Counted from the stretch's first letter, positions 32,910 to 62,153 are shown. The stretch is DNA of 64,000 nt from Methanoregula sp. PtaB.Bin085 (GCF_002067035.1 NZ_MVQB01000060.1:103499-167498), one strand, 5' to 3'. A program made the numbers and translations. Notes: generated from the sequence alone by a model not told the origin.

Positions 32910-33025
32910 TCACCAGATCTTGACCTTTGTCAGGAAAAACCGTTGGGATAAATATTACTCACCCCGGGAATGATCCGCCAATCAGCAGTCAGGATCAGGA
33001 TAACTGTCGGGAAGGGTACTCTGGA

Positions 33026-33505
33026 ATGACCTTTGAATGCCAGCAATGCGGCGACTGCTGCAGTACGATGGGAGAGATTATCAGGATCCGTGACCGGATC
33101 GGACAATGGGAATTCCGGATAGGATTCACAAACGGGGAGGAGAGGATCGTCTCCATCGATCCGGATAAGCGGGATCTCTTCCGGATTCGGGAAGAGACAG
33201 ATAAAAAAACCATCGCATGCCCGTTTCTCCGGAAGCAACCCCCTGAAAAGCGGATCTGTACAGTCCATTCAAGCCGGCCGGAACTCTGCCGGGCCTACAT
33301 CTGTTCGAGAATCCTCGTACTGAACACGAACGGGAAAAAAGCAGGGCGGGTTCCGGATGGAACCCGCATCTTCGTCACAGAAGACCGGTTCCTTCTCGAT
33401 CTCTGGAATACAACCCTGAGGAATGTCCAGACCCGGGACGAGGAAGAGTGGGAAAGGATAATTGAGGATGTTTTCAAAAAGGAAGGGTACACGGTGATTC
33501 GGTGA
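33026..33505 (+). CDS. YkgJ-family cysteine-cluster protein (CxxCxxCC)
   Basis: Starts MTFECQQCGDCCS, later ACPFL...ICTVHSSRPELCRAYIC. Second member of this family in the window. Confidence 0.65.
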   Translation: MTFECQQCGDCCSTMGEIIRIRDRIGQWEFRIGFTNGEERIVSIDPDKRDLFRIREETDKKTIACPFLRKQPPEKRICTVHSSRPELCRAYICSRILVLNTNGKKAGRVPDGTRIFVTEDRFLLDLWNTTLRNVQTRDEEEWERIIEDVFKKEGYTVIR

Positions 33506-33528: not shown

Positions 33529-34497
33529 TCATATCTTCTGCCTGAGTTCCTGTATCAGAGCATCGCCGAATTCACGGGTCCCGGTGGTTCCTCCCAGATC
33601 CCTGGTACGAATTCCCCGGTTCAGTACCTGCAGTACGGATTCCTCAATACACCCGGCACCGTTCGGGTCGCCAAGATGATCGAGGAGCATGGCTGCGCTC
33701 CGGATAGCTGCAACAGGGTTTGCAATATTCCTGCCTGCGATATCGGGAGCGCTCCCGTGGACCGGTTCGAAGAGAGCATAGCGATCCCCGATGTTCGCGC
33801 TTGGCACAACGCCAAGGCCTCCCACGAGGTATGCCGCGACGTCGGAGAGGATATCGCCGAACATGTTCGTTGTGACAACCACATCGTAGCTCTTCGGGTG
33901 CTGGAGCAGGTCAAGGGAGAGCGCGTCAATGAACCTGTCGTTGCAAGCGATATTGGCAGCCTTTGCTTCGGAAAGACAGATATCCCGGAAAAAAACGTCT
34001 GATTTGATGACGTTCGCCTTGTGCCCGATGGTCAGGATACCCTTTCTCTGCCGGGCAAGATCAATTGCTTTTCTGATAATCCGTTCTGTACCCTTCCTGC
34101 TGACAACCCGCAGCGTTGTAGCGCGATCGGGGGTCGTCTCTTCAATGCCCGAGTAAAGCCCTTCCGTGTTCTCACGGACGATCATGATATCGATGCCATC
34201 TCCCCTCACAGGCCGGAGATTGGCATACAGATCGAGCGCTTTACGGATCCGCAGGACAACGCTCTGGTAATCCTTCATCGGGGGTGTGGTTATTGCACCG
34301 AACAGGATAGCATCCGAGTTTTTCAGTTGCGCGATATCCGGGTCCGTGCAGGGACATCCTGTCCTCTCCCACCTGCCGTAGCCAACCTCGACATTGAAAA
34401 AGTCATACTCGGGATGCAGCAGTTCGAGCACGCTGCGGGCAACCGGAATAACTTCATGACCGATCCCGTCACCCTCCACGACTGCTATCCGGGTCAT
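33529..34497 (-). CDS. aksF: homoisocitrate / isopropylmalate dehydrogenase family (probable AksF)
   Basis: [16 protein letters not shown]...LFGAITTP...[14 protein letters not shown]...IVRENTEG...NMFGDILSD. Last gene of the aks operon. The aksF versus leuB assignment rests on context. Confidence 0.8.
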
Positions 34498-35294
34498 CCC
34501 CGCCTCCCGCGCGCTGCCAGGGCCCGGACTGCCTCAAGGATCTTTACCGGTTCTGATCCCCAGTGGACGATAGCGCCGCTTTTCCCGTTCCACGATGACA
34601 CTGCTTCCCGTTCGCTCCGGCAGCAGCGGGCTATGAAAGGTTCTTCCCTGACACATTCAAGCGGGCAGATATTGGTGATGGTAAAATCCGAACCGTAACA
34701 TTCGTTCAGGAACTGGGTGGCAGTCAGACAGCCGGCAACCTGCTCCCCGCCATGCATGGCATCGGCATCGAGGGTCCGGGCAAACCCTCCGGCCCGGCAG
34801 GGGTATACATCCGCGCGAACCTCGGTGATATCCCGGATATGGTGCACGAACTGCACATTAAGGTTGCCAAAAAGCCCGGCATTCTCAAGTTCACGGATAC
34901 CGGACGAAAGGCTTGGCCGTGGCGGGCTCACGTCATAGACATGTATCTTCAGGAAACCTGACAGATCGGGATCGAGAACAAAGGTCATGTGTTCGTCGTG
35001 GCCGGAAAAGATCGTGCAGCGGTATCCCGTGTCGAGAGCCAGTTCAACGAGGCGTGTGCGGTTGTGGAGGTTTACCTTTTCCGGATAGTGATAGACCTCG
35101 TTCTCACGGGCGAGGACCCGACTCGAGACAACCTGCCTCATCATGCCTTTGTGGGTCTGGTCCAGGGTAACTTCGAGCAGCTCGTGTCCACCGGAAGTGT
35201 CCCGCAGCAGCCACCGGCTTAAAAAATAAACCCTTTCGTCGCAGGGTTTTGCCGATGCATGACCGACATGCTTGCAGTGCTCCGGAAAGATCAC
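34494..35294 (-). CDS. uncharacterised Cys-rich protein embedded in the aks operon
   Basis: 266 aa if started at GTG 35294 (GTGA overlap with the aksE stop). The 3' end makes an ATGA overlap with the aksF start. Contains CPLEC...CC and several His. No family recognised. An alternative ATG (MMRQVV) would leave a 145-nt gap. Confidence 0.55.
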   Translation of the reverse strand: MIFPEHCKHVGHASAKPCDERVYFLSRWLLRDTSGGHELLEVTLDQTHKGMMRQVVSSRVLARENEVYHYPEKVNLHNRTRLVELALDTGYRCTIFSGHDEHMTFVLDPDLSGFLKIHVYDVSPPRPSLSSGIRELENAGLFGNLNVQFVHHIRDITEVRADVYPCRAGGFARTLDADAMHGGEQVAGCLTATQFLNECYGSDFTITNICPLECVREEPFIARCCRSEREAVSSWNGKSGAIVHWGSEPVKILEAVRALAARGRRG

Positions 35295-35761
35295 GGACGC
35301 CCCCTCCAGTACCTGATCAGGCCTCCCGCTGCGAGAATGTCCCGCATCCTCGGGGAAAGGGGCCGGATAGAATAGGTATTCCCGCCGGTTTCCACGCATC
35401 CTGCCGCGAGATCGAATTTCACATTCTGCCCTTCCACGCACGGAAGGCTGCATTCTATGGCCGGAAGACCGACATTTATGGCATTCCGGAAAAAGATCCG
35501 GGCAAATGACGGTGCAATTACTGCTGTAACACCAGCTTCCTTCAGCGCCAGCGCTGCCTGTTCACGCGAGGACCCGCAGCCGAAATTCTTTCCGGCTACA
35601 ATGACCGCCCCGTTCATCCGGGCTGCAAGCGAGGGATCGAGATCCTCGAACACATGGGAAACCCATATTCCGTGATCCTTTGTTCTCAGGTAACGCCCGG
35701 CTATGATCAGATCCGTGTCGATGTCCGGACCGAGACAGACCGCATGACCTCCCCCCTGCAT
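35291..35761 (-). CDS. aksE: homoaconitase small subunit (AksE/HacB)
   Basis: LeuD-like swivel domain (DTDLIIAGRYL..., GKNFGCGSSREQAA). The specificity loop reads YLRT with Arg26-Thr27, the homoaconitase-type residues of M. jannaschii HacB. Confidence 0.85.
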   Translation of the reverse strand: MQGGGHAVCLGPDIDTDLIIAGRYLRTKDHGIWVSHVFEDLDPSLAARMNGAVIVAGKNFGCGSSREQAALALKEAGVTAVIAPSFARIFFRNAINVGLPAIECSLPCVEGQNVKFDLAAGCVETGGNTYSIRPLSPRMRDILAAGGLIRYWRGRP

Positions 35762-36970
35762 TCATCCCACCTCCGGTTCGGTGATCTCACCAGTGAGGGC
35801 GCTCGCACCAGCGGTTGCAACGGATGAGAGATATATTTCTCCGCCAACTCCCATCCGGTTCCTGAAATTCCGGTTTGCTGTGGAGAGGCAGACTTCGCCT
35901 TCACCAAGAACCCCCATGTGCGCCCCGAGACACGGCCCGCAGCCGGGCGTACCGATCGTGCATCCCGCCGCCACGAGATCCGCGATAACCCCCGTGCGGA
36001 TCGCTTCTGAAAGGACTGCCCGCGATGCCGGGACAACAATGGTCCGTACTGCAACGTTCTTTCCTTTCAGGATCCCTGCAAGGCGGGCAAGATCGCTGAA
36101 ACGCCCGTTTGTGCAGGCACCGACAAAGACCTGGTCGATAGGGATACCGGCCAGGTCACTGACGGGTTTTACCGTGTCCACCCGTGGCGGCACCGCAATG
36201 AGCGGGACGATATCGCTCAGATCAAATTCCAGTTCCCGGCTGTACATGCAGGAGTCCGGGACCTGGGGCTGAACTTTCTGTCCCTTGCCTGCAAGGTACT
36301 GCAAGGTAATGTGGTCAGCATAGAACATGCCGGTCTTGGCACCGGTCTCCACCGAGAGATTGCAGAGCGTCAGCCGGTCATCCATTCCAAGGTTCTTTAC
36401 CCCGTCTCCAATAAATTCGAGGGCACAGTATGTCCCTCCGTCCATCCCAAGCCTGCTGACATACAGGAGGGCGAGGTCTTTTGCCTCCGCACTACCCTGC
36501 AGCGACCCGGTGAGGCTGATGCCGATGGAGTCCGGGACCCGGAACCAGGTCTCTCCGGTCAGCCATATCGCTGCCATGTCCGTTGCACCGACACCGGTCG
36601 CGAACGCACCGAACGCGCCGGGTGTACAGCTGTGCGAGTCGGCCCCGACAACCACCTCGCCTGGCAACACGACACCTTCACTCATCAGCTGATGGCAGAT
36701 CCCGCCTCCGATATCGGAGAAGTGCATGAACGACCCGCAGGCAAAATCACGGAGTTCGTGCTGGAGGGTGGCCGTGGTGGAGTTGTTCGCCGGGACGATG
36801 TGGTCGAAAAGAACATACAGGTCCGGATCGTCGCTCAACCGGTTGCCCATCTGCTTCCAGGTTTCGAGTGTCAGCACACCGGTCCCGTCGTGGACATAGG
36901 CCCGGTCCACTTTCCTGTCCACATACTCCCCTGCATCTGCTCCGAGGATTCGTTCCGAGAGCGTGCTCAT
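35762..36970 (-). CDS. aksD: homoaconitase large subunit (AksD/HacA)
   Basis: Aconitase-family large subunit (VGADSHSCT, ...GACTNGR..., PGCGPCLG cluster ligands). Start at MSTLSERILG (ATG 36970) forms an ATGA overlap with the aksA stop. Confidence 0.85.
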   Translation of the reverse strand: MSTLSERILGADAGEYVDRKVDRAYVHDGTGVLTLETWKQMGNRLSDDPDLYVLFDHIVPANNSTTATLQHELRDFACGSFMHFSDIGGGICHQLMSEGVVLPGEVVVGADSHSCTPGAFGAFATGVGATDMAAIWLTGETWFRVPDSIGISLTGSLQGSAEAKDLALLYVSRLGMDGGTYCALEFIGDGVKNLGMDDRLTLCNLSVETGAKTGMFYADHITLQYLAGKGQKVQPQVPDSCMYSRELEFDLSDIVPLIAVPPRVDTVKPVSDLAGIPIDQVFVGACTNGRFSDLARLAGILKGKNVAVRTIVVPASRAVLSEAIRTGVIADLVAAGCTIGTPGCGPCLGAHMGVLGEGEVCLSTANRNFRNRMGVGGEIYLSSVATAGASALTGEITEPEVG

Positions 36971-38094
36971 GCAGGAGACTCCTTTACTTTCCGGATCAGC
37001 TTCCTCAGCACCTCCGGCGTTATGTTGCACTTGTGCTCGGAATGGTCCTTGACAAGGTCGAGCACCCTGCAGACCTGCTTCTCCGAAAGCTCACAGCCCA
37101 TTGAGGAGACGACATGTTCGAGTGCCTTCTTCCCGGTGTGTTTCCCGAGGATGAAATGCCGCTCGCTGCCCACGAGATCCGGAGGGAAGTACTCGTACGT
37201 GGCGGGATCGTCGAGAATGGCGGCAATGTGGATTCCGCTCTCGTGCGAGAACGCAAGCTCCCCGGTGACGGGCTTGTTCCGCGGGAGGGAGACACCGGAA
37301 TACTTTTCCACCATGTGCGAGAGTTCCGTAAGGTGCGAGAGGTCGTAGCGGTCGATCCCCTTCTTCATCCGGAGGGCGACGAGAAGCTCCTCGAGCGATG
37401 CGTTCCCCGCCCGCTCCCCGATTCCGTTGACCGTGGTATGGAGCTGGAAGGCACCTGCCTCAGCAGCCGTGATTGTATTAGCCACCGCGCAACCCATGTC
37501 GTTGTGGCAGTGGGCACAGAATGGCCGGTCTACGGATGCGACAAGCTCGGTCATAATCCGCTGCATGTCGGAGGGTATGAGGCAGCCCACGGTATCTGCG
37601 AACGAGAGCAGGACTGCACCGTGCTCTGCAGCCCGCCGGTATACCTCCTTGAGGAAACCGAGATCCGTCCGGGATGCGTCTTCGGCAGCAAACCGTACCT
37701 GGACACCATGGTCACGGGCATAATCGATCATTCTCAGGGAGTCCTCAAGTACCTGATGCCGGGGTTTTTTGAATTTTACACGGACATGGAGTTCCGAGGT
37801 CGGGATGAAGATACTGACCATGTCGACACCACAGTCGATTGCGGTCTGGATATCGGCTTCCTTTGCCCGCGAGAAACCACAGATACGGGCATCGAGCCCG
37901 AGATGTGCTATGGTTTTCACACACTCTTTCTCATTTGCCGACACCGCCGGGAACCCGGCCTCGATGACTTCGATCCCGATCTCGTCGAGTCTGGTTGCGA
38001 TAGCAACCTTCTCCTGGCAGGAGAACGAGACTCCAGGCGTCTGTTCCCCGTCCCGCAGGGTCACATCACAGATCTCAATATGCAACGGTTTCAT
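36967..38094 (-). CDS. aksA: homocitrate synthase-type 2-oxoacid:acetyl-CoA condensing enzyme (probable AksA)
   Basis: DRE-TIM core (ICDVTLRDGEQTPGV...HCHNDMGCAVAN...GIGERAGN). Only 375 aa, so it lacks the LeuA/CimA C-terminal regulatory domain, as AksA does. Confidence 0.8.
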   Translation of the reverse strand: MKPLHIEICDVTLRDGEQTPGVSFSCQEKVAIATRLDEIGIEVIEAGFPAVSANEKECVKTIAHLGLDARICGFSRAKEADIQTAIDCGVDMVSIFIPTSELHVRVKFKKPRHQVLEDSLRMIDYARDHGVQVRFAAEDASRTDLGFLKEVYRRAAEHGAVLLSFADTVGCLIPSDMQRIMTELVASVDRPFCAHCHNDMGCAVANTITAAEAGAFQLHTTVNGIGERAGNASLEELLVALRMKKGIDRYDLSHLTELSHMVEKYSGVSLPRNKPVTGELAFSHESGIHIAAILDDPATYEYFPPDLVGSERHFILGKHTGKKALEHVVSSMGCELSEKQVCRVLDLVKDHSEHKCNITPEVLRKLIRKVKESPA

Positions 38095-39346
38095 GACTGC
38101 ATCCCTCCGGACAAACTCCTTCCACAACAAGTGTTCGCGGCGTGTCCGTCACCACGAGTTCACGTTCAAGCGTCCGGATCTCCCCCGCCCCGCAGACCAC
38201 GGGTGTTGCCCATGACAGGTAAGGGAGGGGATCCGGCACCGGCTGCCCGCCGGTCATGGCCGCACGGGTATTCTTCATAACGATACAGAGCATCGGAAGC
38301 TGTCCGGTATATACATCAATGAGTGCATTCAGGCCGGAATGGAGCAGCGCATAATCACCAATAAGGGCAACCTTTGTGCTCCGTGCAGCGACTGCTATAC
38401 TTGCTCCCATGCCATAACTTGCCATCCCAAGTTCGTACGGGCGGTTCATCGCCAGGATCGAACAGCCGGCATCGCAGATCACCTGCATACCCCGCTCCTT
38501 CAGGATCTTCAGCATCTGGTGATAGGGGCAGTTCCGGCAGAACGTCCGGGAGAAGCCCCTGCCTTCCATTGTTGCAGGTGGCCCCCGGGGTTCCGGAGGC
38601 AGAACTCCCCGATGGTACCGGATGAAGGCACGACCGCACTCATGAACCTCATGGATCCCTGCTGCCTGTGCCGGTACCGGGTTCACGGTCACGATCCGGG
38701 TCGTTCCGGGAGCCGGGCCGGCCCCGGCAGGTCCGCCATGCCAGTGGTTCAGCGGCGAATCGGTTGACCAGTCGGACATCCGGCGGTACAACTCGCCTGC
38801 CGCAGTTGCCCGACCATTCATCGTCCATGCCCGGTTCGCGAGCCGGCCCCGCCGGTCAGCGCGTTGCACGGGGAGATCCTTCGCCTCCGCATCCAGGACG
38901 CCGGGAGTCAGCCGGAGCAGGGTCACCCGTGAGAACTCTTCCGATGCCTGAAACGCAGCTTCGACCGCCGCGTGGAAGCAGGACGGATCCGGTTCGATGA
39001 CCGGTATTTCGGCAAGCTCTCCGTAATACCGCGAATCCTGGGCAGTCTGCGATCCCTTTGCCTCCGGGTCATCGCCGGCCACGAGCACGACTCCGGCGAC
39101 CAGGCCCTGGTTCACGGCCTGGACGAGAGGATCGGCACACGCGTTCACCCCGACATTCTTGACGATGACTGCAGCCCGCCTGCCTGCGATAGAATCGCCA
39201 AGAGCATATTCCAGGGCAGTCTTCTCGTTGATAACGAGCCTGGCTCCGGCAAGGATCGCAAGATCTGTGATCGGGTAGCCCGGAACGGTGTACAGCCGAT
39301 CGGTCGATCGGATAAGTGCATCCGCCACAACCGCTGAACCGTTCAT
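38075..39346 (-). CDS. thiamine-diphosphate enzyme, IorA-like but lacking ferredoxin domain and beta subunit
   Basis: The N-terminal Pyr domain (VPGYPITDL...NEKTALEYALGDSIAGRRAAVIVKNVGVNACADPL) and C-terminal PP domain (FCRNCPYHQ...DAGCS...GMGASIAVA...IGDYALLHSG...NTRAAMTGGQP) resemble indolepyruvate:ferredoxin oxidoreductase alpha. There is no CxxCxxCxxxC module. ATGA overlap with the radical SAM stop. Confidence 0.75.
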   Translation of the reverse strand: MNGSAVVADALIRSTDRLYTVPGYPITDLAILAGARLVINEKTALEYALGDSIAGRRAAVIVKNVGVNACADPLVQAVNQGLVAGVVLVAGDDPEAKGSQTAQDSRYYGELAEIPVIEPDPSCFHAAVEAAFQASEEFSRVTLLRLTPGVLDAEAKDLPVQRADRRGRLANRAWTMNGRATAAGELYRRMSDWSTDSPLNHWHGGPAGAGPAPGTTRIVTVNPVPAQAAGIHEVHECGRAFIRYHRGVLPPEPRGPPATMEGRGFSRTFCRNCPYHQMLKILKERGMQVICDAGCSILAMNRPYELGMASYGMGASIAVAARSTKVALIGDYALLHSGLNALIDVYTGQLPMLCIVMKNTRAAMTGGQPVPDPLPYLSWATPVVCGAGEIRTLERELVVTDTPRTLVVEGVCPEGCSHETVAY

Positions 39347-40311
39347 CCGTCCCTCCCCGGAACGAGATCGCATCCGCAGCAGTTCGTGCACATCGTGACA
39401 GCCTGCCAGGGATCGAGACCTGCTTGTTCAAGTGCGTCTTTGTGGATGGCAAAGATCTTCCTGAGCCGTTCCGCGGTCGGCCGGGGCGTCCCGGCCATCC
39501 CGGCAACCGGGTTGAGGGGTCGAAGGACCGGGATGACCCCATGGGATGTCAGCTGCCGGATGCATGCCTCCATCTCATCATCTGTTTCCCCAAGGCCGAT
39601 GATGACATTGGAAAAGACGCGGTTCTTTCCGAAGAGTTCCACGGATCGATCGAGAACCTGCCAGAGCAGACCGTAATCGAGGCCCGGGCACATCTGTGCA
39701 AAAAGATCAGGGGTCGCTGCCTCGAGATTGAACTTCACTTCCGCAACTCCGAGTGCCTTCAGCCGATCGGGAGTCTGCCCCGTGGGATAGATCGAGACAC
39801 CGATGGGGAGGTTAAAGAATGTGAGGTGTTTTACGACATTCAGCACGTATGCCTCCTCCTCTCCGATGGTCTCAAGGACTCCGCTGGTGACGGAGATCGC
39901 ATGGATTCGGTGCACTGCCGGTTCAACCATCCCCATGATCTCCCCGATGGTCTTACGCCTTCCCCCGAGGGTCGGGACCGGGCAGTACCGGCACCTGAAT
40001 ATACAACTACCGGTGACCGTGATGAACGCCTGGTCGGGGCAGTGGTACCCGGGTTCCAGAAGCCGTCCTGTGGCCTGGTTCCCGTCATAGAAGAGATCCG
40101 CAATCCCGTTCCCGCGGTGGGCGATCTCGATATCTCCCAGAGGGTCCAGCGCGAGCCTGACGCGGTGGCTCCCCATGGCAAAGAAGACTGATCCCTTCCC
40201 ACCGGCTCCCGGGCCGGCAGCTGAACGGGCAATGAACTGGTCCGCCGGCTCACCGCTCAGCCGGGCCGTCCCTGCTTCGAGCAGCCTTGCCTTCAGGTCT
40301 TTCCACTGCAT
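39343..40311 (-). CDS. radical SAM enzyme (BioB/LipA-like core) with C-terminal CxxCCxC motif
   Basis: CIFRCRYC (CxxxCxxC) after an approximately 100-aa N-terminal domain; IIGLGETDDE motif; C-terminus MCTNCCGCDL. Confidence 0.85.
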   Translation of the reverse strand: MQWKDLKARLLEAGTARLSGEPADQFIARSAAGPGAGGKGSVFFAMGSHRVRLALDPLGDIEIAHRGNGIADLFYDGNQATGRLLEPGYHCPDQAFITVTGSCIFRCRYCPVPTLGGRRKTIGEIMGMVEPAVHRIHAISVTSGVLETIGEEEAYVLNVVKHLTFFNLPIGVSIYPTGQTPDRLKALGVAEVKFNLEAATPDLFAQMCPGLDYGLLWQVLDRSVELFGKNRVFSNVIIGLGETDDEMEACIRQLTSHGVIPVLRPLNPVAGMAGTPRPTAERLRKIFAIHKDALEQAGLDPWQAVTMCTNCCGCDLVPGRDG

Positions 40312-41189
40312 AATTCCAGCGCCTCCTCATACCGGGTAAAGAAGGGGATTGCCGCCACAGCCCCCGTAATGCCCCGCCCGTGGATGATAATACGGAGACA
40401 AGGGTCCCGGATCGATGAAATGAGTCCGGAATCGACCTCTCCCCGTTTGACCTTCCTTCCGTATTCAAGCAGATTGTCTGATACGGAAAAACCGGAATAC
40501 ACCGCCATGCCGGTCTTCGTTGAGAGGGTGTATTTCTCCAGCAGCGTACGGAACCTGCTGATGAGGCTTTCCGGATCAGTTGTCGCGAACTCAGCAGCCA
40601 GAGCAACACAGTTCTTGGTGCGGTACGCAACCGGGAAGAGCTGCACAATCGTATGCGACAGGTACACAGTATGTTCATCCTCAACTGAACGGGAGATATT
40701 GTGGACGAGTGTCCATGTCGCTCCCTCATCAGGAGTATCCGTATCATCTACGCCGATCACGATCCGCTGCATCCGTTGCAGCCAGAGGGTGGCCCCGGCA
40801 ACTTTCCCGCCACCGGCAGGATCGCTCCTGCTCCGCAGTACGCCTGTGGCATCGGACCGGCAGGCCGCAGCTCCCACACCTCCGCCACCCATACCGATAT
40901 ACGTCACTGCGATCTCGTCGCCGTCAACAATGCAGGACGAGATTCCGGCAGGAAACCGCGAACCCTCAAGAGCCAGATCGACACTCCCGGCCTTCAGGAG
41001 ATACCGCATGGTGGAACCTACACAGCGGACATCTTCAACAATCGGACTCTGCGCATAGTGCTTTTTCGACCACATTGCCCCGCCGGTACAGTCAAAGAAC
41101 TCGATGAGCTCGACCCGCTTTCCTGCCGAATCGGCCACCGCCGCGATCCGCGGGTAGTGGATCACGTACGGATCAGAGATGCTCTCCAT
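40293..41189 (-). CDS. TiaS-kinase-domain-like protein, paralogue 2
   Basis: 298 aa. The C-terminal half has IVIGVDDTDTPDEGATW...VQLFPVAYRTKNC...IHGRGITGAVAA, resembling the N-terminal kinase module of tRNA agmatidine synthetase TiaS (from memory). N-terminal Gly-rich loop GMGGGGVGAAAC. Paralogous to 41173-42129. Confidence 0.7.
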   Translation of the reverse strand: MESISDPYVIHYPRIAAVADSAGKRVELIEFFDCTGGAMWSKKHYAQSPIVEDVRCVGSTMRYLLKAGSVDLALEGSRFPAGISSCIVDGDEIAVTYIGMGGGGVGAAACRSDATGVLRSRSDPAGGGKVAGATLWLQRMQRIVIGVDDTDTPDEGATWTLVHNISRSVEDEHTVYLSHTIVQLFPVAYRTKNCVALAAEFATTDPESLISRFRTLLEKYTLSTKTGMAVYSGFSVSDNLLEYGRKVKRGEVDSGLISSIRDPCLRIIIHGRGITGAVAAIPFFTRYEEALELCSGKT

Positions 41190-42129
41190 ACAGGCCTGCC
41201 GCCTCGGTTCCCCTATTGCCCCATACTACGGCCCCGAGAGCCCCGATCCGTCCCTTTCCGCCGGTCCGGTCGAGATACTCGATTCCCAGCGTTTCTGCTT
41301 CACGCTCTGCCTCATCCATAGAAAGGATTTCGGTCTTGATCCACTTCGCAACGGGTGCATCGGAAAAATCCCTGATCCCGTGGTAACAGGCTATGCCGGT
41401 CTCCCTGGAGAACGTGTTCTTTTCCACGAATGCCCGGACCGATTCCAGCAGGACCGGGATCCGGGCCGGCTTCACCGCGAAGTTCAGGGAGGTACTGACG
41501 CAGTTCGTGGTTTTGTGCGGGACCGCGGGATTGAGCTGGACGAGCCGCATATTCAAAAACTCGACTCCTTCCATCCTGCAGGCTTCGGCACACTTCAGTG
41601 CCATTACCCACGTCGCCCCGTCTGTCTTCGTGTCCGTGTCATCGATACCGATACAGATTTTCTCGTACCGCGGCGAGACGATACGGACATGGTTGGTCCG
41701 GGCACCGCCAACTTTTAAATCCTCATCAGAAGGATATTCCGTTCTGATGACGCCGGGGGCCTGCGGGAGGCAGGCTGCAACGCCAATACCGGCACCCGCA
41801 ATCCCTGCCCAGCTGGTGATCACCTCGTCTCCCGCGACTTCGACGCCTTCCAGCGCCTGCCCTCCGATATCCCCGGCTGCCGATCCGAAGTTCACCGGGA
41901 ATTTCCCGAGCTTTGCGTGAATGGTCATGGAGGACCCTTCAATCTCGCACCGGACAACTGCACCACCGGCCCTGCGACGGTTCATAGCATCCCATTCAAT
42001 TGTGCCCCGGACCCGGCACTGCTCATGGATCTCGGCAACGCCCGCCCGTTCATCCACCAGTACCAGGAATTTTTGTGCAAAGAGCGGCCCGAACCGCTTT
42101 TTCACGTCGTCAGGAATCAGGGTGATCAT
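41173..42129 (-). CDS. TiaS-kinase-domain-like protein, paralogue 1
   Basis: 318 aa. ICIGIDDTDTKTDGATW...RLVQLNPAVPHKTTNC...GGKGRIGALGAV plus N-terminal GIAGAGIGVAAC. First gene of the operon, with TTTAAATA (42174-42181) upstream. Confidence 0.7.
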   Translation of the reverse strand: MITLIPDDVKKRFGPLFAQKFLVLVDERAGVAEIHEQCRVRGTIEWDAMNRRRAGGAVVRCEIEGSSMTIHAKLGKFPVNFGSAAGDIGGQALEGVEVAGDEVITSWAGIAGAGIGVAACLPQAPGVIRTEYPSDEDLKVGGARTNHVRIVSPRYEKICIGIDDTDTKTDGATWVMALKCAEACRMEGVEFLNMRLVQLNPAVPHKTTNCVSTSLNFAVKPARIPVLLESVRAFVEKNTFSRETGIACYHGIRDFSDAPVAKWIKTEILSMDEAEREAETLGIEYLDRTGGKGRIGALGAVVWGNRGTEAAGLYGEHL

Positions 42130-42173
42130 GTTATCGCCGAAATTTTCGTTAACAAGATAATCGGCAATAACCG

Positions 42174-42181
42174 TATTTAAA
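42174..42181 (-). promoter_or_regulatory. TATA-box-like element upstream of the nine-gene operon
   Basis: The minus strand reads TTTAAATA about 45-52 nt upstream of ATG 42129, within the 87-bp gap after ftr. Confidence 0.35.
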
Positions 42182-42216: not shown

Positions 42217-43101
42217 TCAGAGGACTTTGTGCAGATCGATTTTATAGGGACCGAGCGTACCGCCAAAGTTCCCGGCCGAGATAAACCTGACACCGGGTAC
42301 CATGACTGCAGCCCTGATACCAGCGGACATTGCCTCGGCAACCGACTTTTCATCAACCCCATCGATCACAATCTCGTACACTGCCTTAATTCCGGCAGGG
42401 ATCTTGCTGTCGGGGACTTTCTCGCGGAGGGTCGGGCAGTATTTTTCATTGGTGGAAGCAACCATGAATTTGTACTTGTTGCTGCCTACCTTTGAACCGC
42501 TTGCTACAATACCTCCGGGGAAGCTCGTGATGACACCCTTTACCCTGGCAATCGCATCGGATGCAGCCTGTGCACCCATGAGGGCTGCCATCTGGTTCTC
42601 ACCCATAACAAAGAAGTTGCCGCCGGCAACACCCTTGACGATGCCGAACTCTTCCTCACCGACATACTCCCCGTTCATGATCGGGATGACCCAGCACTTG
42701 CGGCCGCCGACTTCTTTCTGGTACTCGTATCCGTCGCCAAAGAAGTGGAGTTTCACCGGTATCTTTTCTTCGGCATTGGTAATGCCGTTGAAGACCGCGG
42801 TGGTTGGTGCCGTAAGAACGCACTCGGCGAGGCGCTCGACAACCTGCTCCTTCAGTTTCTTCTTACCGGCACAGATCAGGATGGCAACACCAGGGCGCCC
42901 GTCAGGAGTTTCTCCAGCCGGAACATCTCCCTCGATTCCTGCCTCGCACGGGCAGCCGATTGCCGATGTGGCAAAGCCGGTTGCCTCAGTTGCTGCTTTC
43001 CTCGCCCATTCAGTAGTGACCGCAGTTATGATAATCCGGCAAACCCATGTCGGGAATGCCTCTGCATACGTATTGTCAATTGTAACGCCATTGATTTCCA
43101 T
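42217..43101 (-). CDS. ftr: formylmethanofuran:tetrahydromethanopterin N-formyltransferase
   Basis: MEINGVTIDNTYAEAFPTW...FFGDGYEYQKE...GGNFFVMGENQ..., 294 aa, full-length Ftr. GGAGGT lies before ATG 43101. Confidence 0.95.
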   Translation of the reverse strand: MEINGVTIDNTYAEAFPTWVCRIIITAVTTEWARKAATEATGFATSAIGCPCEAGIEGDVPAGETPDGRPGVAILICAGKKKLKEQVVERLAECVLTAPTTAVFNGITNAEEKIPVKLHFFGDGYEYQKEVGGRKCWVIPIMNGEYVGEEEFGIVKGVAGGNFFVMGENQMAALMGAQAASDAIARVKGVITSFPGGIVASGSKVGSNKYKFMVASTNEKYCPTLREKVPDSKIPAGIKAVYEIVIDGVDEKSVAEAMSAGIRAAVMVPGVRFISAGNFGGTLGPYKIDLHKVL

Positions 43102-59165: not shown

Positions 59166-59639
59166 ATGCAAAAGAACCTCGTTGCAGGCGCCCTCGTGGC
59201 GCTCTGCGTTATCGGTATGCTGGCGCTGCCGGCATCCGCGGCACCGCTCACGACCACGGGATCACCCGCAAAGATCAGCACCGTGGACCCGGGGCTCAAA
59301 GACGATCTCCGGGCCAGCCATATGCAGTTCCGTCTCGCCCGCTACGACATGAATGTACAGCAGGCGAACGCGGTCATGACGATCCTGCAGAAGTACACCA
59401 TCGACACGACGGCATGCCAGGCAACGCTGACAACCATCGAAGGGAAGCGTGCAGACCTCCAGTCGGCGCTCGGGTCAGAGGACCGGGAGAAGCTTAAGAC
59501 TGTCAACGAGGAACTCAAGACCCTCTGGAAACAGTTCCGCAAGAACCTCCGGGATGCGGTGAAGTCGCACTACGGCAGGGGAAGTGCGGACACTACGGCA
59601 TCGGATGCTCTCGACAGCCCCGGCCTGGGATCGGACTGA
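59166..59639 (+). CDS. secreted helical protein (hypothetical)
   Basis: Signal peptide MQKNLVAGALVALCVIGMLALPASA followed by an approximately 130-aa helical, charged sequence. Confidence 0.55.
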   Translation: MQKNLVAGALVALCVIGMLALPASAAPLTTTGSPAKISTVDPGLKDDLRASHMQFRLARYDMNVQQANAVMTILQKYTIDTTACQATLTTIEGKRADLQSALGSEDREKLKTVNEELKTLWKQFRKNLRDAVKSHYGRGSADTTASDALDSPGLGSD

Positions 59640-59805
59640 GCCTGGAAACACCATACACCCTTTTCTTTGGAAAATTTCCTTACGGGATAATTTCCCTGCT
59701 ACGGACGGAGCCCTGGAATCGACTGGTTCCGCTGGATTTACTGAGTTCGTCAGGCTGAGTGTTTTTGGTAAGCCTCATACCCTCGCACGCGCAACATCAC
59801 ATGCA

Positions 59806-60963
59806 ATGAAAAATCCCTTCCACATCATGATCATCCCGACGCTGGGATGTCCCGGGCGCTGCAGGTACTGCTGGAGCTCGGAGGAAGGGTCGCCGATCAT
59901 GACGATCGACACGGTGAACGACATTGTTGCATGGCTCAGGGATTTCCGGTCCGACCGCGTCACGTTCACGTTCCACGGGGGCGAACCGCTGCTTGCCGGG
60001 GCTGACTTCTACCGGCAGGCGCTGCCGCTGCTTGCCGGGGAACTGAAGGAGCTCACCCCCGATTTTGCCATGCAGACAAATCTCTGGAGGATGACGCCGG
60101 AGATCGCCGCAGTGCTGGCCCAATATCATGTTCCCCTGGGTTCCTCGATCGATGGGCCGGAGGAGATCACCGATTCCCAGCGGGGCGAAGGGTACTATGA
60201 GAAGTGCATGAAGGGATACGAGATCGCGACCGCTGCCGGCCTGCAGGTCCGGTTCATCTGCACCTTCACCAACAAATCCGTGAAACACCGCGACGAGATC
60301 TTTAATTTTTTCAAGGAGAAGGGTTTTGTCCTGAAACTCCATCCGGCCCTGCCCTCGCTCCGTTCGGAGAACCCGAAGGAGTGGGCGCTGGAACCTTCTG
60401 AATATGGCGATCTGCTGGTGTACCTTCTCGACAAGGCGCTCGACAACCTCGGGAAGGTGGAAGTCATGAACATCAACGACCTGTGCCGGTGTGTCTTCAC
60501 CCGCCGGGGGAGCGTCTGCACCTTCGTCAACTGCATGGGCAGCACCTTCGCGATCGGGCCCGACGGCAGCATCTACCCCTGCTACCGTTTCGTCGGCATG
60601 CCGGAATGGGTGATGGCAAACGTCAGGGACAAGCCGACGATGGAGCAGCTGATGCAGTCTGATCCGGGGAGGCGCATGACCGCATTCTCGGAGTATGTGG
60701 ATCTTCACTGCAAAGACTGCTCCCACATCCGGTACTGCCGGGGCGGATGCCCGTACAACGCTATCGCCCCCTCCGGCGGATCTCTCGAGGGCACAGACCC
60801 CCACTGCACCGCCTATAAGCGCATTTTCGATGAGCTCAATGACCGGCTGAACAGCGAAATGTACGATGAGCCGTCATCCGGAACGGGCTCCGGCAGGCCT
60901 GCGGCCGGCAGAAAGAAAAGGCCCGGCGTGATGGCGCTGATGCGGTCGATTGTGACACGGTAA
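59806..60963 (+). CDS. radical SAM / SPASM-domain protein (anaerobic sulfatase-maturase-like)
   Basis: Start MKNPFHIMIIPTLGCPGRCRYC (CxxxCxxC). C-terminal SPASM-type cysteines (CRCVFTRRGSVCTF..., CKDCSHIRYCRGGCPYN). The ORF-track 5' extension overlaps the previous gene and was rejected. Confidence 0.85.
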   Translation: MKNPFHIMIIPTLGCPGRCRYCWSSEEGSPIMTIDTVNDIVAWLRDFRSDRVTFTFHGGEPLLAGADFYRQALPLLAGELKELTPDFAMQTNLWRMTPEIAAVLAQYHVPLGSSIDGPEEITDSQRGEGYYEKCMKGYEIATAAGLQVRFICTFTNKSVKHRDEIFNFFKEKGFVLKLHPALPSLRSENPKEWALEPSEYGDLLVYLLDKALDNLGKVEVMNINDLCRCVFTRRGSVCTFVNCMGSTFAIGPDGSIYPCYRFVGMPEWVMANVRDKPTMEQLMQSDPGRRMTAFSEYVDLHCKDCSHIRYCRGGCPYNAIAPSGGSLEGTDPHCTAYKRIFDELNDRLNSEMYDEPSSGTGSGRPAAGRKKRPGVMALMRSIVTR

Positions 60964-61064: not shown

Positions 61065-62153
61065 ATGACTGCAAAAAAAACCGCATCCTACCGCCCGGTC
61101 AGCCTGAACCGGGAGTTCCTTGCCGGGAACATACTGGAAACCCTCGCCCGCAGGGAAAGAAAAGCATGGGAACTCCTCAGCATGGAGCGGCGCGTTGAAG
61201 TCCGGGAGGTATCCCTGTCCGCCATCACGGCGCTTGAGGAGTCGCTTGCCATCCGGTCCCCCGTATTCCTTGAAGAGGCCGCCCGCTGGACACAGGTACG
61301 CTTCGCGGCGCTGCATTACCCCCAGGGTTTTGCTGCTGCCTTCATATCGTGTCTTGCGGAGGTTATTTCGCGGGACCTTCCCGGGGACTACCGGAAGGAG
61401 GCCGCTGCCTATGCGAAAAGCGCGGCGGCAGCCCTCAGGTCCGCTGCCCGGAACGCTGGCCTGGGAAAAAAACAGGAATCCCTCTCACCGGCTGCCCGGG
61501 CATTCATCAGGGCAGGCCTCTCGGGAGACCTTCCCGGATGCAGGGCGGTCATAAAAAAAGCGCTCGCGGCAAAAAAACCGGTGGCAGAGATCTACACGCG
61601 CATCTTTATACCGGTGCTGTACGAGACCGGCCGGCTCTGGCAGGCGGGGGATGCCACGATCGCACAGGAACATTTCATTTCAGCCATTGTCCGCCAGAGC
61701 ATGGACCGGCTCCATGAACACGTTGCTGACGCGTCCCGGCGGACCAGGCAAAACAAGAGCGTTGTTGCTGCATGCGTCGGGGAGGAACTTCACGACATCG
61801 GGATCCGCATGGTCGGGGACTTTTTCGAGATGGACGGCTGGGATGTCTATTTCCTTGGCGCCAATACACCGCCAAAAAGCATCCTCGCTGCTGTAAGGGA
61901 GCAGGAGCCGGACGTACTCGCACTCTCGGTCACCATGCCGTCCCGGCTCCGCGATGCAGAGTACCTGATCCGGTCGCTCAGGGCGTCCCCGGACACTGCG
62001 AAGGTAAAGATCATTGTCGGGGGCAGCCCGTTCAGGATCCTGCCGGATCTCGGGAAGCGTATTGGAGCCGACGCGGTCACAGGATCTGCTGAGGACGCCG
62101 TCCCTGTTGCACGGAAATTGCTACGGATGAAGGCCGTAGGAAAAAAAGAATAA
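61065..62153 (+). CDS. cobalamin (B12)-binding domain protein with helical N-terminal extension
   Basis: The C-terminal Rossmann-like B12 domain has an ELHDIG (DxHxxG-type) motif and IIVGG. A preceding helical cap resembles B12-binding_2 (IYTRIFIPVLYETGRLWQAGDATIAQEHF). An extra approximately 150-aa N-terminal region is present. Confidence 0.75.
   Translation: MTAKKTASYRPVSLNREFLAGNILETLARRERKAWELLSMERRVEVREVSLSAITALEESLAIRSPVFLEEAARWTQVRFAALHYPQGFAAAFISCLAEVISRDLPGDYRKEAAAYAKSAAAALRSAARNAGLGKKQESLSPAARAFIRAGLSGDLPGCRAVIKKALAAKKPVAEIYTRIFIPVLYETGRLWQAGDATIAQEHFISAIVRQSMDRLHEHVADASRRTRQNKSVVAACVGEELHDIGIRMVGDFFEMDGWDVYFLGANTPPKSILAAVREQEPDVLALSVTMPSRLRDAEYLIRSLRASPDTAKVKIIVGGSPFRILPDLGKRIGADAVTGSAEDAVPVARKLLRMKAVGKKE

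Follow-up and report, generated by a model that had tools for sequence, protein, structure and literature searches.

A nine-gene operon of Methanoregula joins aksADEF to candidate genes for the late steps of coenzyme B biosynthesis

Methyl-coenzyme M reductase (MCR), to which almost all biological methane production and the anaerobic oxidation of methane and alkanes are due, acts on two substrates, one of them coenzyme B (CoB). CoB synthesis begins with AksA, AksD/AksE and AksF, which elongate 2-oxoglutarate to 2-oxosuberate, and its late steps (decarboxylation, thiol formation, threonine ligation and phosphorylation) were defined in extracts more than 25 years ago. The subject here is a run of nine genes, named G1 to G9 in the direction of transcription, on the minus strand of a 64,000-nucleotide stretch of Methanoregula sp. 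PtaB.Bin085 (GCF_002067035.1, NZ_MVQB01000060.1:103499-167498), called the window below. Four of the genes are aksADEF. The reading favoured here, with some reserve, is that all nine constitute an operon for CoB biosynthesis, in which the five genes that accompany the aks genes are candidates for the late steps.

Described systems offer a counterpart for most of these genes. AksA, AksD-AksE (HacAB) and AksF of Methanocaldococcus jannaschii belong to the same four families as G5, G6, G7 and G9, and their genes, dispersed in that organism, are here found in one operon. TiaS, the tRNA-Ile2 agmatidine synthetase (PDB 3AMT/3AU7), places a phosphate on a carbonyl oxygen, which can then be displaced by an amine, and is also a protein-threonine kinase; this activation of C=O for substitution was reportedly described by Terasaka and Osawa in 2011. 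XcbA of Xanthobacter is a [2Fe-2S] protein that reduces sulfoethanethioaldehyde to coenzyme M (CoM) (PMC9457059). LipS2 thiolates the terminal C8 of octanoyl-lysine first and has a sacrificial auxiliary cluster (PMC9585515). The late part of the CoB pathway itself was called "still unknown" in 2025 (PMC12068725), and full-text searches, which also covered TiaS in methanogens, found no mention of methanogenesis marker 11 or of DUF7714 in this sense, and no genes for the late CoB intermediates. An earlier note on this DNA had said that the late steps have no assigned genes, which agrees with that description except at the thiol step, for which MMP16 and L-ASST have been proposed. MMP16 (ComF) and L-ASST (COG1900) are, like G3 and G8, candidates for the conversion of 7-oxoheptanoate to 7-mercaptoheptanoate, but their families are unrelated to those of G3 and G8; MMP16 has genetic and biochemical support for CoM, whereas G3 and G8 are proposed from homology. 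Neither MMP16 nor L-ASST is encoded in the window.

The nine-gene arrangement is conserved within the family. A DUF7714 profile scan of species genomes gave matches of which the best 80 of 281 are all from Methanoregulaceae. Among the Methanoregulaceae loci that also hold ftr (n = 63), 43 have all nine genes in the same order and with the same overlaps, and 20 have eight. A metagenome-assembled genome (L084), at 49–74% identity, likewise has all nine in the same order with the same overlaps. Because order and overlaps recur in both sets, the arrangement is not due to chance.

Protein searches were dominated by Methanoregula (Methanomicrobiales), to which the closest homologues assign the window, and distant loci were reached with representative sequences of DUF7714 and of methanogenesis marker protein 11 (Mmp11). 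Here three of the genes, encoding Mmp11 (G2 in the window), a radical SAM enzyme (G3) and a DUF7714 protein (G8), stand out as a unit. Locus L090 carries a true Mmp11 (372 bits, 85% identical to a Hydrothermarchaeota protein), a G3-like radical SAM enzyme (37% identity, E 1e-54) and a DUF7714/XcbA-like protein (119 bits), then aksA, aksD, aksE (with a YLRT loop) and aksF, followed by an acetolactate-synthase-like thiamine-diphosphate (TPP) enzyme and a DUF362/ferredoxin protein. Locus L093, Methanomassiliicoccales-like because of its MtmB neighbour, has a tight operon of Mmp11, G3-like radical SAM enzyme (36%, E 4e-51) and DUF7714, with no aks genes. The order aksE, DUF7714, aksF is found in another archaeal lineage (L086), and Methanomicrobium mobile (L085) has ftr, G1 and DUF7714. 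Mmp11, radical SAM enzyme and DUF7714 form a recurrent module in three distant lineages, and the module is joined to aks genes in two unrelated lineages with different gene orders. The earlier note had suggested testing whether the neighbourhood with aks genes is conserved across methanogen genomes, and the families do co-occur in distant lineages. Because they recur together in very distant archaea, the five families are the best available candidates for the last CoB steps.

In L093, aldehyde:ferredoxin-oxidoreductase-like and DsrE-like genes are convergent to the module operon, and a more distant DUF7714 gene lies between genes for an AhbD-like radical SAM enzyme and NadA. Genes for an aldehyde dehydrogenase and endonuclease IV follow the cluster in L084 and L085 and are absent from the window; they could be a remnant of ancient gene order or point to an aldehyde intermediate.

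All four Aks-type families are present together in the operon: a homocitrate synthase (G5), the large and small subunits of a homoaconitase (G6 and G7) and a homoisocitrate dehydrogenase (G9). HacA_Meth, HacB2_Meth and AksF2_Meth are among their best NCBIfam matches, although the proteins score below the equivalog cut-offs, which were trained on Methanococcales. G7 and its clustered orthologues have the YLRT loop, a homoaconitase determinant reportedly described by Jeyakanthan et al. in 2010. These features agree with the aksADEF identification in the earlier note and mark a homoaconitase-type Aks set, whose substrates would be 2-oxoglutarate, 2-oxoadipate and 2-oxopimelate. The difference from M. 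jannaschii is the fusion of these genes to five others. Aconitase and Iso_dh genes near Mmp11 in Methanobacterium were considered as aks genes and rejected; their small subunit, a LeuD-type protein with YLVM in place of YLRT, marks them as leuCD-type.

The first of the five others to act would be G4. This protein is related to IorA and the 2-oxoacid:ferredoxin oxidoreductases in having Pyr and PP domains, a TPP motif (GDY...N, readable in the family alignment) and a CxxC...C resembling that of their proximal [4Fe-4S] cluster; its conserved cysteines are C270xxC273-x17-C291, C295, C354 and C412. It differs from them in size (423 amino acids against 595 positions in the IOR_alpha model), in score (139.8 bits against a cut-off of 650.9) and in lacking a ferredoxin domain and an IorB or CoA-binding partner in the operon; profile searches found no Fer4 domain in G4 and no IorB-like gene within the operon. 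The earlier note had proposed a TPP enzyme for decarboxylation. Such an enzyme is indeed encoded, but with its IorA-like sequence and conserved Fe-S cysteines it looks like an oxidoreductase-type TPP/Fe-S protein, unlike a simple decarboxylase. Three unrelated TPP-enzyme families (IorA-like, acetolactate-synthase-like and ComDE-like) occur beside Mmp11 and the radical SAM enzyme in different loci, which points to a linked 2-oxoacid decarboxylation step.

G1 and G2 are 32% identical, and profile searches place the TiaS TCKD kinase domain in both. The curated cut-off of TIGR03280 is 255.8 bits; G2 lies above it and G1 below, and by this measure G2 is a true marker 11 and G1 a paralogue outside the family. 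G1 matches TiaS in sequence (PDB 3AMT, E 2e-5). For G2, the AlphaFold2 (AF2) model (predicted local distance difference test, pLDDT, 88.5) has TiaS as its only significant fold match in the PDB (3AMT, E 9.5e-8, 151 columns, root-mean-square deviation 2.7 Å), an outcome of the structural check that the earlier note had suggested. The G2 residues D148 D149 T150 D151 ... T158 are invariant in 35 diverse sequences, and the DDTD...GATW stretch of G1 and G2 aligns with D8, D9, D11 and Thr18 of TiaS. This DDTD...T motif holds ATP/Mg and the autophosphorylated Thr18 in TiaS.

Unlike TiaS, G1 and G2 lack the OB fold and zinc ribbon for tRNA and have instead an N-terminal domain of about 140 residues; at 318 and 298 amino acids they are shorter than the 417–440-residue TiaS chains and end after the TCKD/FLD region. 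Their NCBIfam TiaS score is 42 bits against a 600-bit cut-off, with about 150 residues aligning. The substrate is presumably a small molecule. A PDB fold search gave no solved relative for the N-terminal ~140 residues of G2; ACT-like matches were weak (E ~0.01, TM ~0.2) and are not relied on. PDB sequence searches with G2, G4 and G8 returned nothing useful.

G1 appears to be a lineage-specific and dispensable paralogue of G2. The eight-gene loci have kept the promoter, and a short open reading frame (ORF) comes after it in every locus that allowed a match. In several of them this ORF encodes 70–82 amino acids, made up of about 60 N-terminal and 20–47 C-terminal residues of G1 (examples in Table 1; others occur in further eight-gene loci). 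By this composition the remnants are products of an internal deletion of the kinase core, and their differences hint at more than one deletion event.

G8 matches the XcbA family (NF052538) over its full length with 58 bits (E 8e-16), and intermediate DUF7714 members from L090 and L093 reach 119 bits, all below the 150-bit cut-off; by these scores G8 is homologous to XcbA and belongs to a separate subfamily. When G8 and its relatives are aligned with Xanthobacter XcbA (Xaut_5070), C189, C210, C224 and C225 do not vary and C166 hardly does, a set of cysteines that could hold a [2Fe-2S] cluster; G8 also shares a PC motif with XcbA. XcbA catalyses the last step of bacterial CoM synthesis in Xanthobacter autotrophicus Py2, where Xaut_5070 on pXAUT01 adjoins phosphosulfolactate synthase; it lies in a thiol-cofactor biosynthesis operon, which is how the G8 operon is read here. 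G8 differs in being archaeal, in its 23% identity, in being paired with a radical SAM enzyme and not with the pyridoxal phosphate enzyme XcbE, and in its substrate, which would be a C7 carboxylate where that of XcbA is a sulfonate. The DUF7714 family is very small: a search of 1.84 billion proteins gave 93 representatives at E<=0.001. In a plasmid collection its bacterial relatives were found only on plasmids of CoM-using alkene oxidisers. The AF2 model of G8 (pLDDT 92.9) has no fold match in the PDB. A role in thiol formation, which the earlier note had suggested for a Cys-rich protein of no known family, gains from this homology to an enzyme that makes the CoM thiol.

The partner of G8 in the module, G3, is a radical SAM enzyme whose nearest named families are the sulfur-inserting LipS2, LipA and BioB. 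All its family scores are far below cut-off: 63.5 bits for the variant_rSAM family, 62.5 against 270 for LipS2, 24.6 against 310 for lipA and 22.5 against 225 for bioB; a sequence match to BioB 1R30 has E 0.0025. Within the G3 family C103/C107/C110 (CX3CX2C), C208 and C308xxC311xxC314 are invariant. Like the LipS2, LipS1, BioB and LipA enzymes, G3 combines CX3CX2C with a second conserved set of cysteines, but its set (the C-terminal CxxCxxC plus C208) is unlike those reported for LipA and LipS1, and its family requires a DUF7714 partner or at any rate travels with one. A second cluster is possible because C208 and the C-terminal CxxCxxC give enough cysteines, and G3 probably holds an auxiliary Fe-S cluster besides the radical SAM cluster. 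The BioB/LipA-like character first suggested for G3 in the earlier note is upheld by its nearest families and by these extra cysteines.

G3-like enzymes are not confined to the module. They are widespread in other methanogens with neither Mmp11 nor DUF7714 beside them, as in Methanomicrobium antiquum, Methanoplanus limicola and Methanotrichaceae (metagenome contigs L094–L173). Their neighbours there are often a cysteine desulfurase, a serine acetyltransferase-FeS_assembly_P fusion, an AIR-synthase-like protein, a PP-loop ATPase-like protein and NadA, a set that fits a sulfur-related role. Unannotated neighbours in the metagenome contigs were considered as divergent Mmp11 or DUF7714 proteins, which comparison ruled out.

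In L089, whose host is probably a member of the Thermoplasmatota, genes for a G3-like radical SAM enzyme (35% identity, E 4e-44) and DUF7714 are followed by split LplA genes (catalytic and C-terminal). A true LipS1 lies 3 kb from the pair, and no LipS2 is in view in the locus. The radical SAM-DUF7714 pair may replace LipS2 in lipoyl synthesis. The pair stands with LplA in the lipoate context and with Mmp11 here, and this parallel supports Mmp11 as an amide ligase and the pair as an installer of terminal thiols.

These considerations lead to the following proposed route. AksA, AksD/E and AksF, predicted from their families to carry out the established chemistry, would make 2-oxosuberate. G4 would then remove C1 to give 7-oxoheptanoate or an activated pimeloyl equivalent. 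G3 and G8, from their homology and conserved adjacency, would install and finish the thiol, with the final reduction, of a C=S (thioaldehyde-type) intermediate, probably falling to G8, in the manner of XcbA in CoM synthesis. G2 would join the C7 acid to threonine through TiaS-type acyl-phosphate chemistry and could phosphorylate the product as well, as TiaS phosphorylates a threonine hydroxyl. If Mmp11 does perform both ATP-dependent steps, it would act as TiaS does, being at once a protein-Thr type of kinase and a carbonyl-oxygen kinase. G1 would be a paralogue of G2 that is particular to the lineage and dispensable. The earlier note spoke of a "complete" CoB pathway, a description that is not supported as it was worded.

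The presence of an ATP-dependent amide ligase beside the pair in both contexts also admits a different order of events, in which Mmp11 first ligates the C7 chain to threonine and G3, helped by G8, then thiolates the terminal carbon of the acyl-amide by radical C-H chemistry, like LipS2. The extra four-cysteine set of G3 is in keeping with this, as are the LplA genes and LipS1 near the L089 pair in a locus with no LipS2, and LipS2 itself, which has a sacrificial cluster, begins with C8. Such an order is nevertheless distinctly unlikely. The aks product is a dicarboxylic 2-oxoacid, so that its C7 is a carbonyl or carboxyl and not a methyl group, and the similarity of G3 to LipS2 is weak (62 bits against the 270-bit cut-off). 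Tracer and extract work by White and by Solow and White, moreover, reportedly showed that 7-oxoheptanoate is converted to 7-mercaptoheptanoate and that the preformed thiol acid is ligated to threonine.

In the Geoglobus ahangari-like L091, a thioredoxin reductase gene is followed by an Mmp11 gene overlapping that of an MSMEG_0568-like variant radical SAM enzyme, and then by cysteate-synthase-like, fused sulfopyruvate-decarboxylase-like and SsuA-like genes. From its gene content the cluster looks like one for a thiol or sulfonate cofactor, in an organism not known for MCR. The enzymes encoded by these neighbours would produce sulfoacetaldehyde, the aldehyde from which the CoM thiol is made, and the various TPP decarboxylase families beside Mmp11 and the radical SAM enzyme, different as they are, all yield carbonyl products. 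With the three-gene operon of L093, which has no aks genes, and the C=O activation of TiaS, this suggests a module that is wholly a thiol-installing machine and an alternative to MMP16/L-ASST. Following the example of TiaS with cytidine, Mmp11 would then phosphorylate a (thio)carbonyl oxygen, sulfur would be supplied or transferred by the radical SAM enzyme, and DUF7714 would reduce C=S; the operon would make only 7-mercaptoheptanoate, with the threonine ligase and the kinase encoded elsewhere. This deserves to be taken seriously but is unlikely. The role of primary CoM synthase already belongs to MMP16, which is a CoB candidate too; Mmp11 is near-universal in methanogens and DUF7714 is not, so that the three do not always act together; and in L089 the pair lacks Mmp11 and lies beside the amide-forming LplA, a parallel that favours Mmp11 as ligase.

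It could also be asked whether the product is CoB. G4 resembles an oxidative 2-oxoacid:ferredoxin oxidoreductase, which would yield a pimeloyl unit, and G3 is BioB-like; such features, along with the tie of the pair to lipoate genes in L089 and of Mmp11 to organisms not known for MCR, would suit an operon that supplies pimelate to biotin synthesis or makes a lipoate-like dithiol or some other thiol from an elongation product, or else five genes linked to aks by synteny alone. The operon and its flanks, however, carry no bioF/A/D or lipoyl-carrier genes, and Mmp11 is a methanogen-centred marker. Among the known cofactors of methanogens, CoB alone requires elongation of the aks type together with a thiol and an amide bond to threonine, and a fusion with aks that arose in two very distant lineages with different gene orders is hard to attribute to mere synteny. 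A product other than CoB, or an association of no functional meaning, is therefore very unlikely.

Several findings weigh against the assignment of the nine genes to CoB biosynthesis, or against parts of it. The five late-step assignments are drawn from homology and conserved gene linkage. The oxidoreductase-type Fe-S cysteines of G4 would not be needed by a simple non-oxidative decarboxylase. The 20 eight-gene loci do without the full-length G1 that is present in 43 of the 63, and the one Mmp11 of Methanobacterium resembles G1 and G2 to the same degree. From these two observations it follows that one paralogue for each of two ATP-dependent steps, as the earlier note proposed, is not a general arrangement, although the TiaS-like fold and the DDTD...T motif that it pointed to are real. 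DUF7714 is patchy, too rare for a protein universal among methanogens, and is absent from most neighbourhoods of G3-like enzymes in other methanogens. The radical SAM-DUF7714 pair occurs with lipoate ligase and LipS1 as well (L089), and the Mmp11 context in Geoglobus, with its cysteate-synthase-like and sulfopyruvate-decarboxylase-like neighbours, is CoM-like.

The distribution of Mmp11 adds to these points. The marker set was originally defined as methanogen-only, but named homologues of marker 11 also exist in Geoglobus ahangari, Ferroglobus sp., Hydrothermarchaeota and Bathyarchaeia, and the Joint Genome Institute (JGI) labels it an "imperfect marker". Geoglobus, Ferroglobus and Hydrothermarchaeota are not known to have MCR. 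The prediction that these families would be restricted to archaea with MCR does not hold strictly: although Mmp11 is methanogen-centred, its occurrence in these three groups and the pair beside lipoate genes depart from it. The classical tracer route reported by White, from 2-oxosuberate through 7-oxoheptanoate to 7-mercaptoheptanoate, needs no radical SAM enzyme. Finally, genetic work in M. acetivorans makes MMP16 the primary CoM synthase there, and its authors suggest that MMP16/L-ASST may form the CoB thiol as well (PMC12068725).

With these points considered, assignment of the operon to CoB biosynthesis is still preferred. A more far-reaching proposal can be put forward tentatively, as a possibility that falls short of being probable. 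Mmp11, the G3-type radical SAM enzyme and DUF7714 would be the late CoB enzymes, with Mmp11 as the first TiaS-type kinase/ligase of small molecules, joining the C7 acid to threonine and phosphorylating the product, and the radical SAM-DUF7714 pair as a new two-protein system by which acyl chains acquire a terminal thiol. In the lipoate synthesis of some Thermoplasmatota, LipS2 would be replaced by a sister version of the pair, and the module would have been kept in Archaeoglobales and Hydrothermarchaeota that have lost MCR.

Table 1. Positions of genes and elements in the window and, where a locus is named, in related loci
Feature	Coordinates	Strand	Evidence or remark
G1, methanogenesis marker 11 paralogue, TiaS-TCKD-like, 318 aa	41173..42129	-	TiaS_TCKD 58 bits; TIGR03280 185.3 bits
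G2, methanogenesis marker protein 11 (Mmp11), 298 aa	40293..41189	-	TIGR03280 323.7 bits over 1-291/292
G3, radical SAM enzyme, BioB/LipS2-like "variant" family, 322 aa	39343..40311	-	Radical_SAM Pfam 50.6 bits
G4, TPP enzyme, IorA-related, 423 aa	38075..39346	-	TPP_enzyme_C 31 bits; IOR_alpha 139.8 bits in two stretches
G5, AksA-like homocitrate/2-oxoacid-elongating synthase, 375 aa	36967..38094	-	HMGL-like 282, HCS_D2 83, LEU1_arch 447, nifV homocitrate synthase 387 bits
G6, AksD/HacA-like homoaconitase large subunit, 402 aa	35762..36970	-	Aconitase 300, hacA_fam 452 (above cut-off), HacA_Meth 421 bits
G7, AksE/HacB-like homoaconitase small subunit, 156 aa	35291..35761	-	LEUD_arch 165, HacB2_Meth 157 bits; YLRT loop
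G8, DUF7714 protein, 266 aa, GTG start	34494..35294	-	PF24830 293.9 bits
G9, AksF-like homoisocitrate dehydrogenase, 322 aa	33529..34497	-	Iso_dh 309, AksF2_Meth 327.6, LEU3_arch 379.9 bits
TATA box TTTAAATA	42174..42181	-	read directly; 44 nt 5' of first ATG
Inverted repeat, 11 bp, GTTATTGCCGA-N21-TCGGCGATAAC	42130..42172	-	between TATA box and first ATG
ftr, formylmethanofuran:tetrahydromethanopterin (H4MPT) formyltransferase	42217..43101	-	TIGR03119 404 bits; conserved upstream neighbour
192-aa Cys-rich ORF	32927-33505	+	convergent to aksF
TIGR04083 gene	59584-60963	+	687 bits
Corrinoid-protein-like gene	61065-62153		after TIGR04083 gene
G1 remnant ORF, L021	3890-4117		
G1 remnant ORF, L044	3037-3285		
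G1 remnant ORF, L067	3715-3942		
Aldehyde dehydrogenase and endonuclease IV, L084	11866-14261		after cluster
Aldehyde dehydrogenase and endonuclease IV, L085	10833-13179		after cluster
G3-like radical SAM enzyme, DUF7714 and split LplA genes, L089	6959-9919		
LipS1, L089	11520-12323		
Mmp11 cluster, L091	8962-15818		
Aldehyde:ferredoxin-oxidoreductase-like and DsrE-like genes, L093	12760-14726		convergent to module operon

The anatomy of the operon is as tight as the earlier note had described it. Recomputing the ORFs recovered all nine at the same coordinates on the minus strand, from 42129 to 33529 without an intergenic base, with junction overlaps of 17, 19, 4 (ATGA), 20, 4 (ATGA), 0 (TGA|ATG), 4 (GTGA) and 4 (ATGA) nucleotides in order. 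The start codons taken, namely ATG 39346 for G4, ATG 38094 for G5, ATG 36970 for G6 and GTG 35294 for G8, are those implied by that note. They are not arbitrary, since three observations agree with them. Gene-finder products on an orthologous 3-Mb Methanoregula contig have 318/298/322/423/375/403/156/266/322 amino acids, with overlaps identical to those of the window; more than 100 DUF7714 homologues have the same 266 amino acids as G8; and a GGAGG-like Shine-Dalgarno motif precedes seven of the eight internal starts.

The TATA-like element noted upstream of the first gene is also a conserved feature. TATAAATA, TATATATA or TTTAAATA stands at the equal position (−52..−45) in about 45 orthologous loci, M. 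mobile included, and a TATA box is kept there in every related locus inspected. The ftr gene precedes the cluster in every related locus, M. mobile and L084 included. In the window it ends with a T-run 87 nucleotides upstream of the operon, and the TATA box lies downstream of that run. With T-run and TATA box between them, ftr is read as a transcription unit separate from the operon. Profile matches of the flanking genes (ftr, polyferredoxin, hdrC, hdrB, hdrA, mvhD, mcrB..mcrA) confirm the proximity to ftr, hdr and mcr on which the earlier note had remarked.

The inverted repeat occurs once in the window. Every Methanoregulaceae locus inspected has it, even those that lost G1, and so do M. mobile and L084. 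As RNA it would fold with −16 kcal/mol (z −5.3). Its pairing holds in 90% of cells over 53 distinct sequences, against 29–54% when slid, with a few double changes, and a GGYGA ribosome-binding site lies inside its 3' arm. It has no Rfam family match, and the whole window, scanned for Rfam families and tRNAs, gave no hits. From these features the repeat would be either a palindromic DNA operator or a hairpin that sequesters the Shine-Dalgarno motif; it may be an operator rather than an RNA hairpin, given the distance that is usual between a TATA box and the start. That both of these start-site elements, TATA box and palindrome, are conserved suggests dedicated regulation of the operon.

Two further regions of the window were noted in passing. 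The stop codon of aksF is 23 nucleotides from a convergent Cys-rich ORF with no NCBIfam match, whose ortholog in locus L001 has a CxxCxxCC-like pattern. About 5 kb downstream of mcrA lies a gene for a "peptide-modifying radical SAM enzyme" of the methanogen-associated type (TIGR04083), followed by a corrinoid-protein-like gene.

What is new here is a testable gene-to-step proposal for a known cofactor pathway, drawn from families of unknown function. The conserved candidate gene set reduces the gap in CoB biosynthesis to a handful of direct experiments. If the proposal is true, it would provide genes required for heterologous MCR systems, new methanogen-specific inhibitor targets and better genome-based calls of the organisms that make CoB. 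In that case a "methanogenesis marker", a DUF and a radical SAM subfamily would gain functions as well, and chemistry of the TiaS and XcbA types would reach new substrates.

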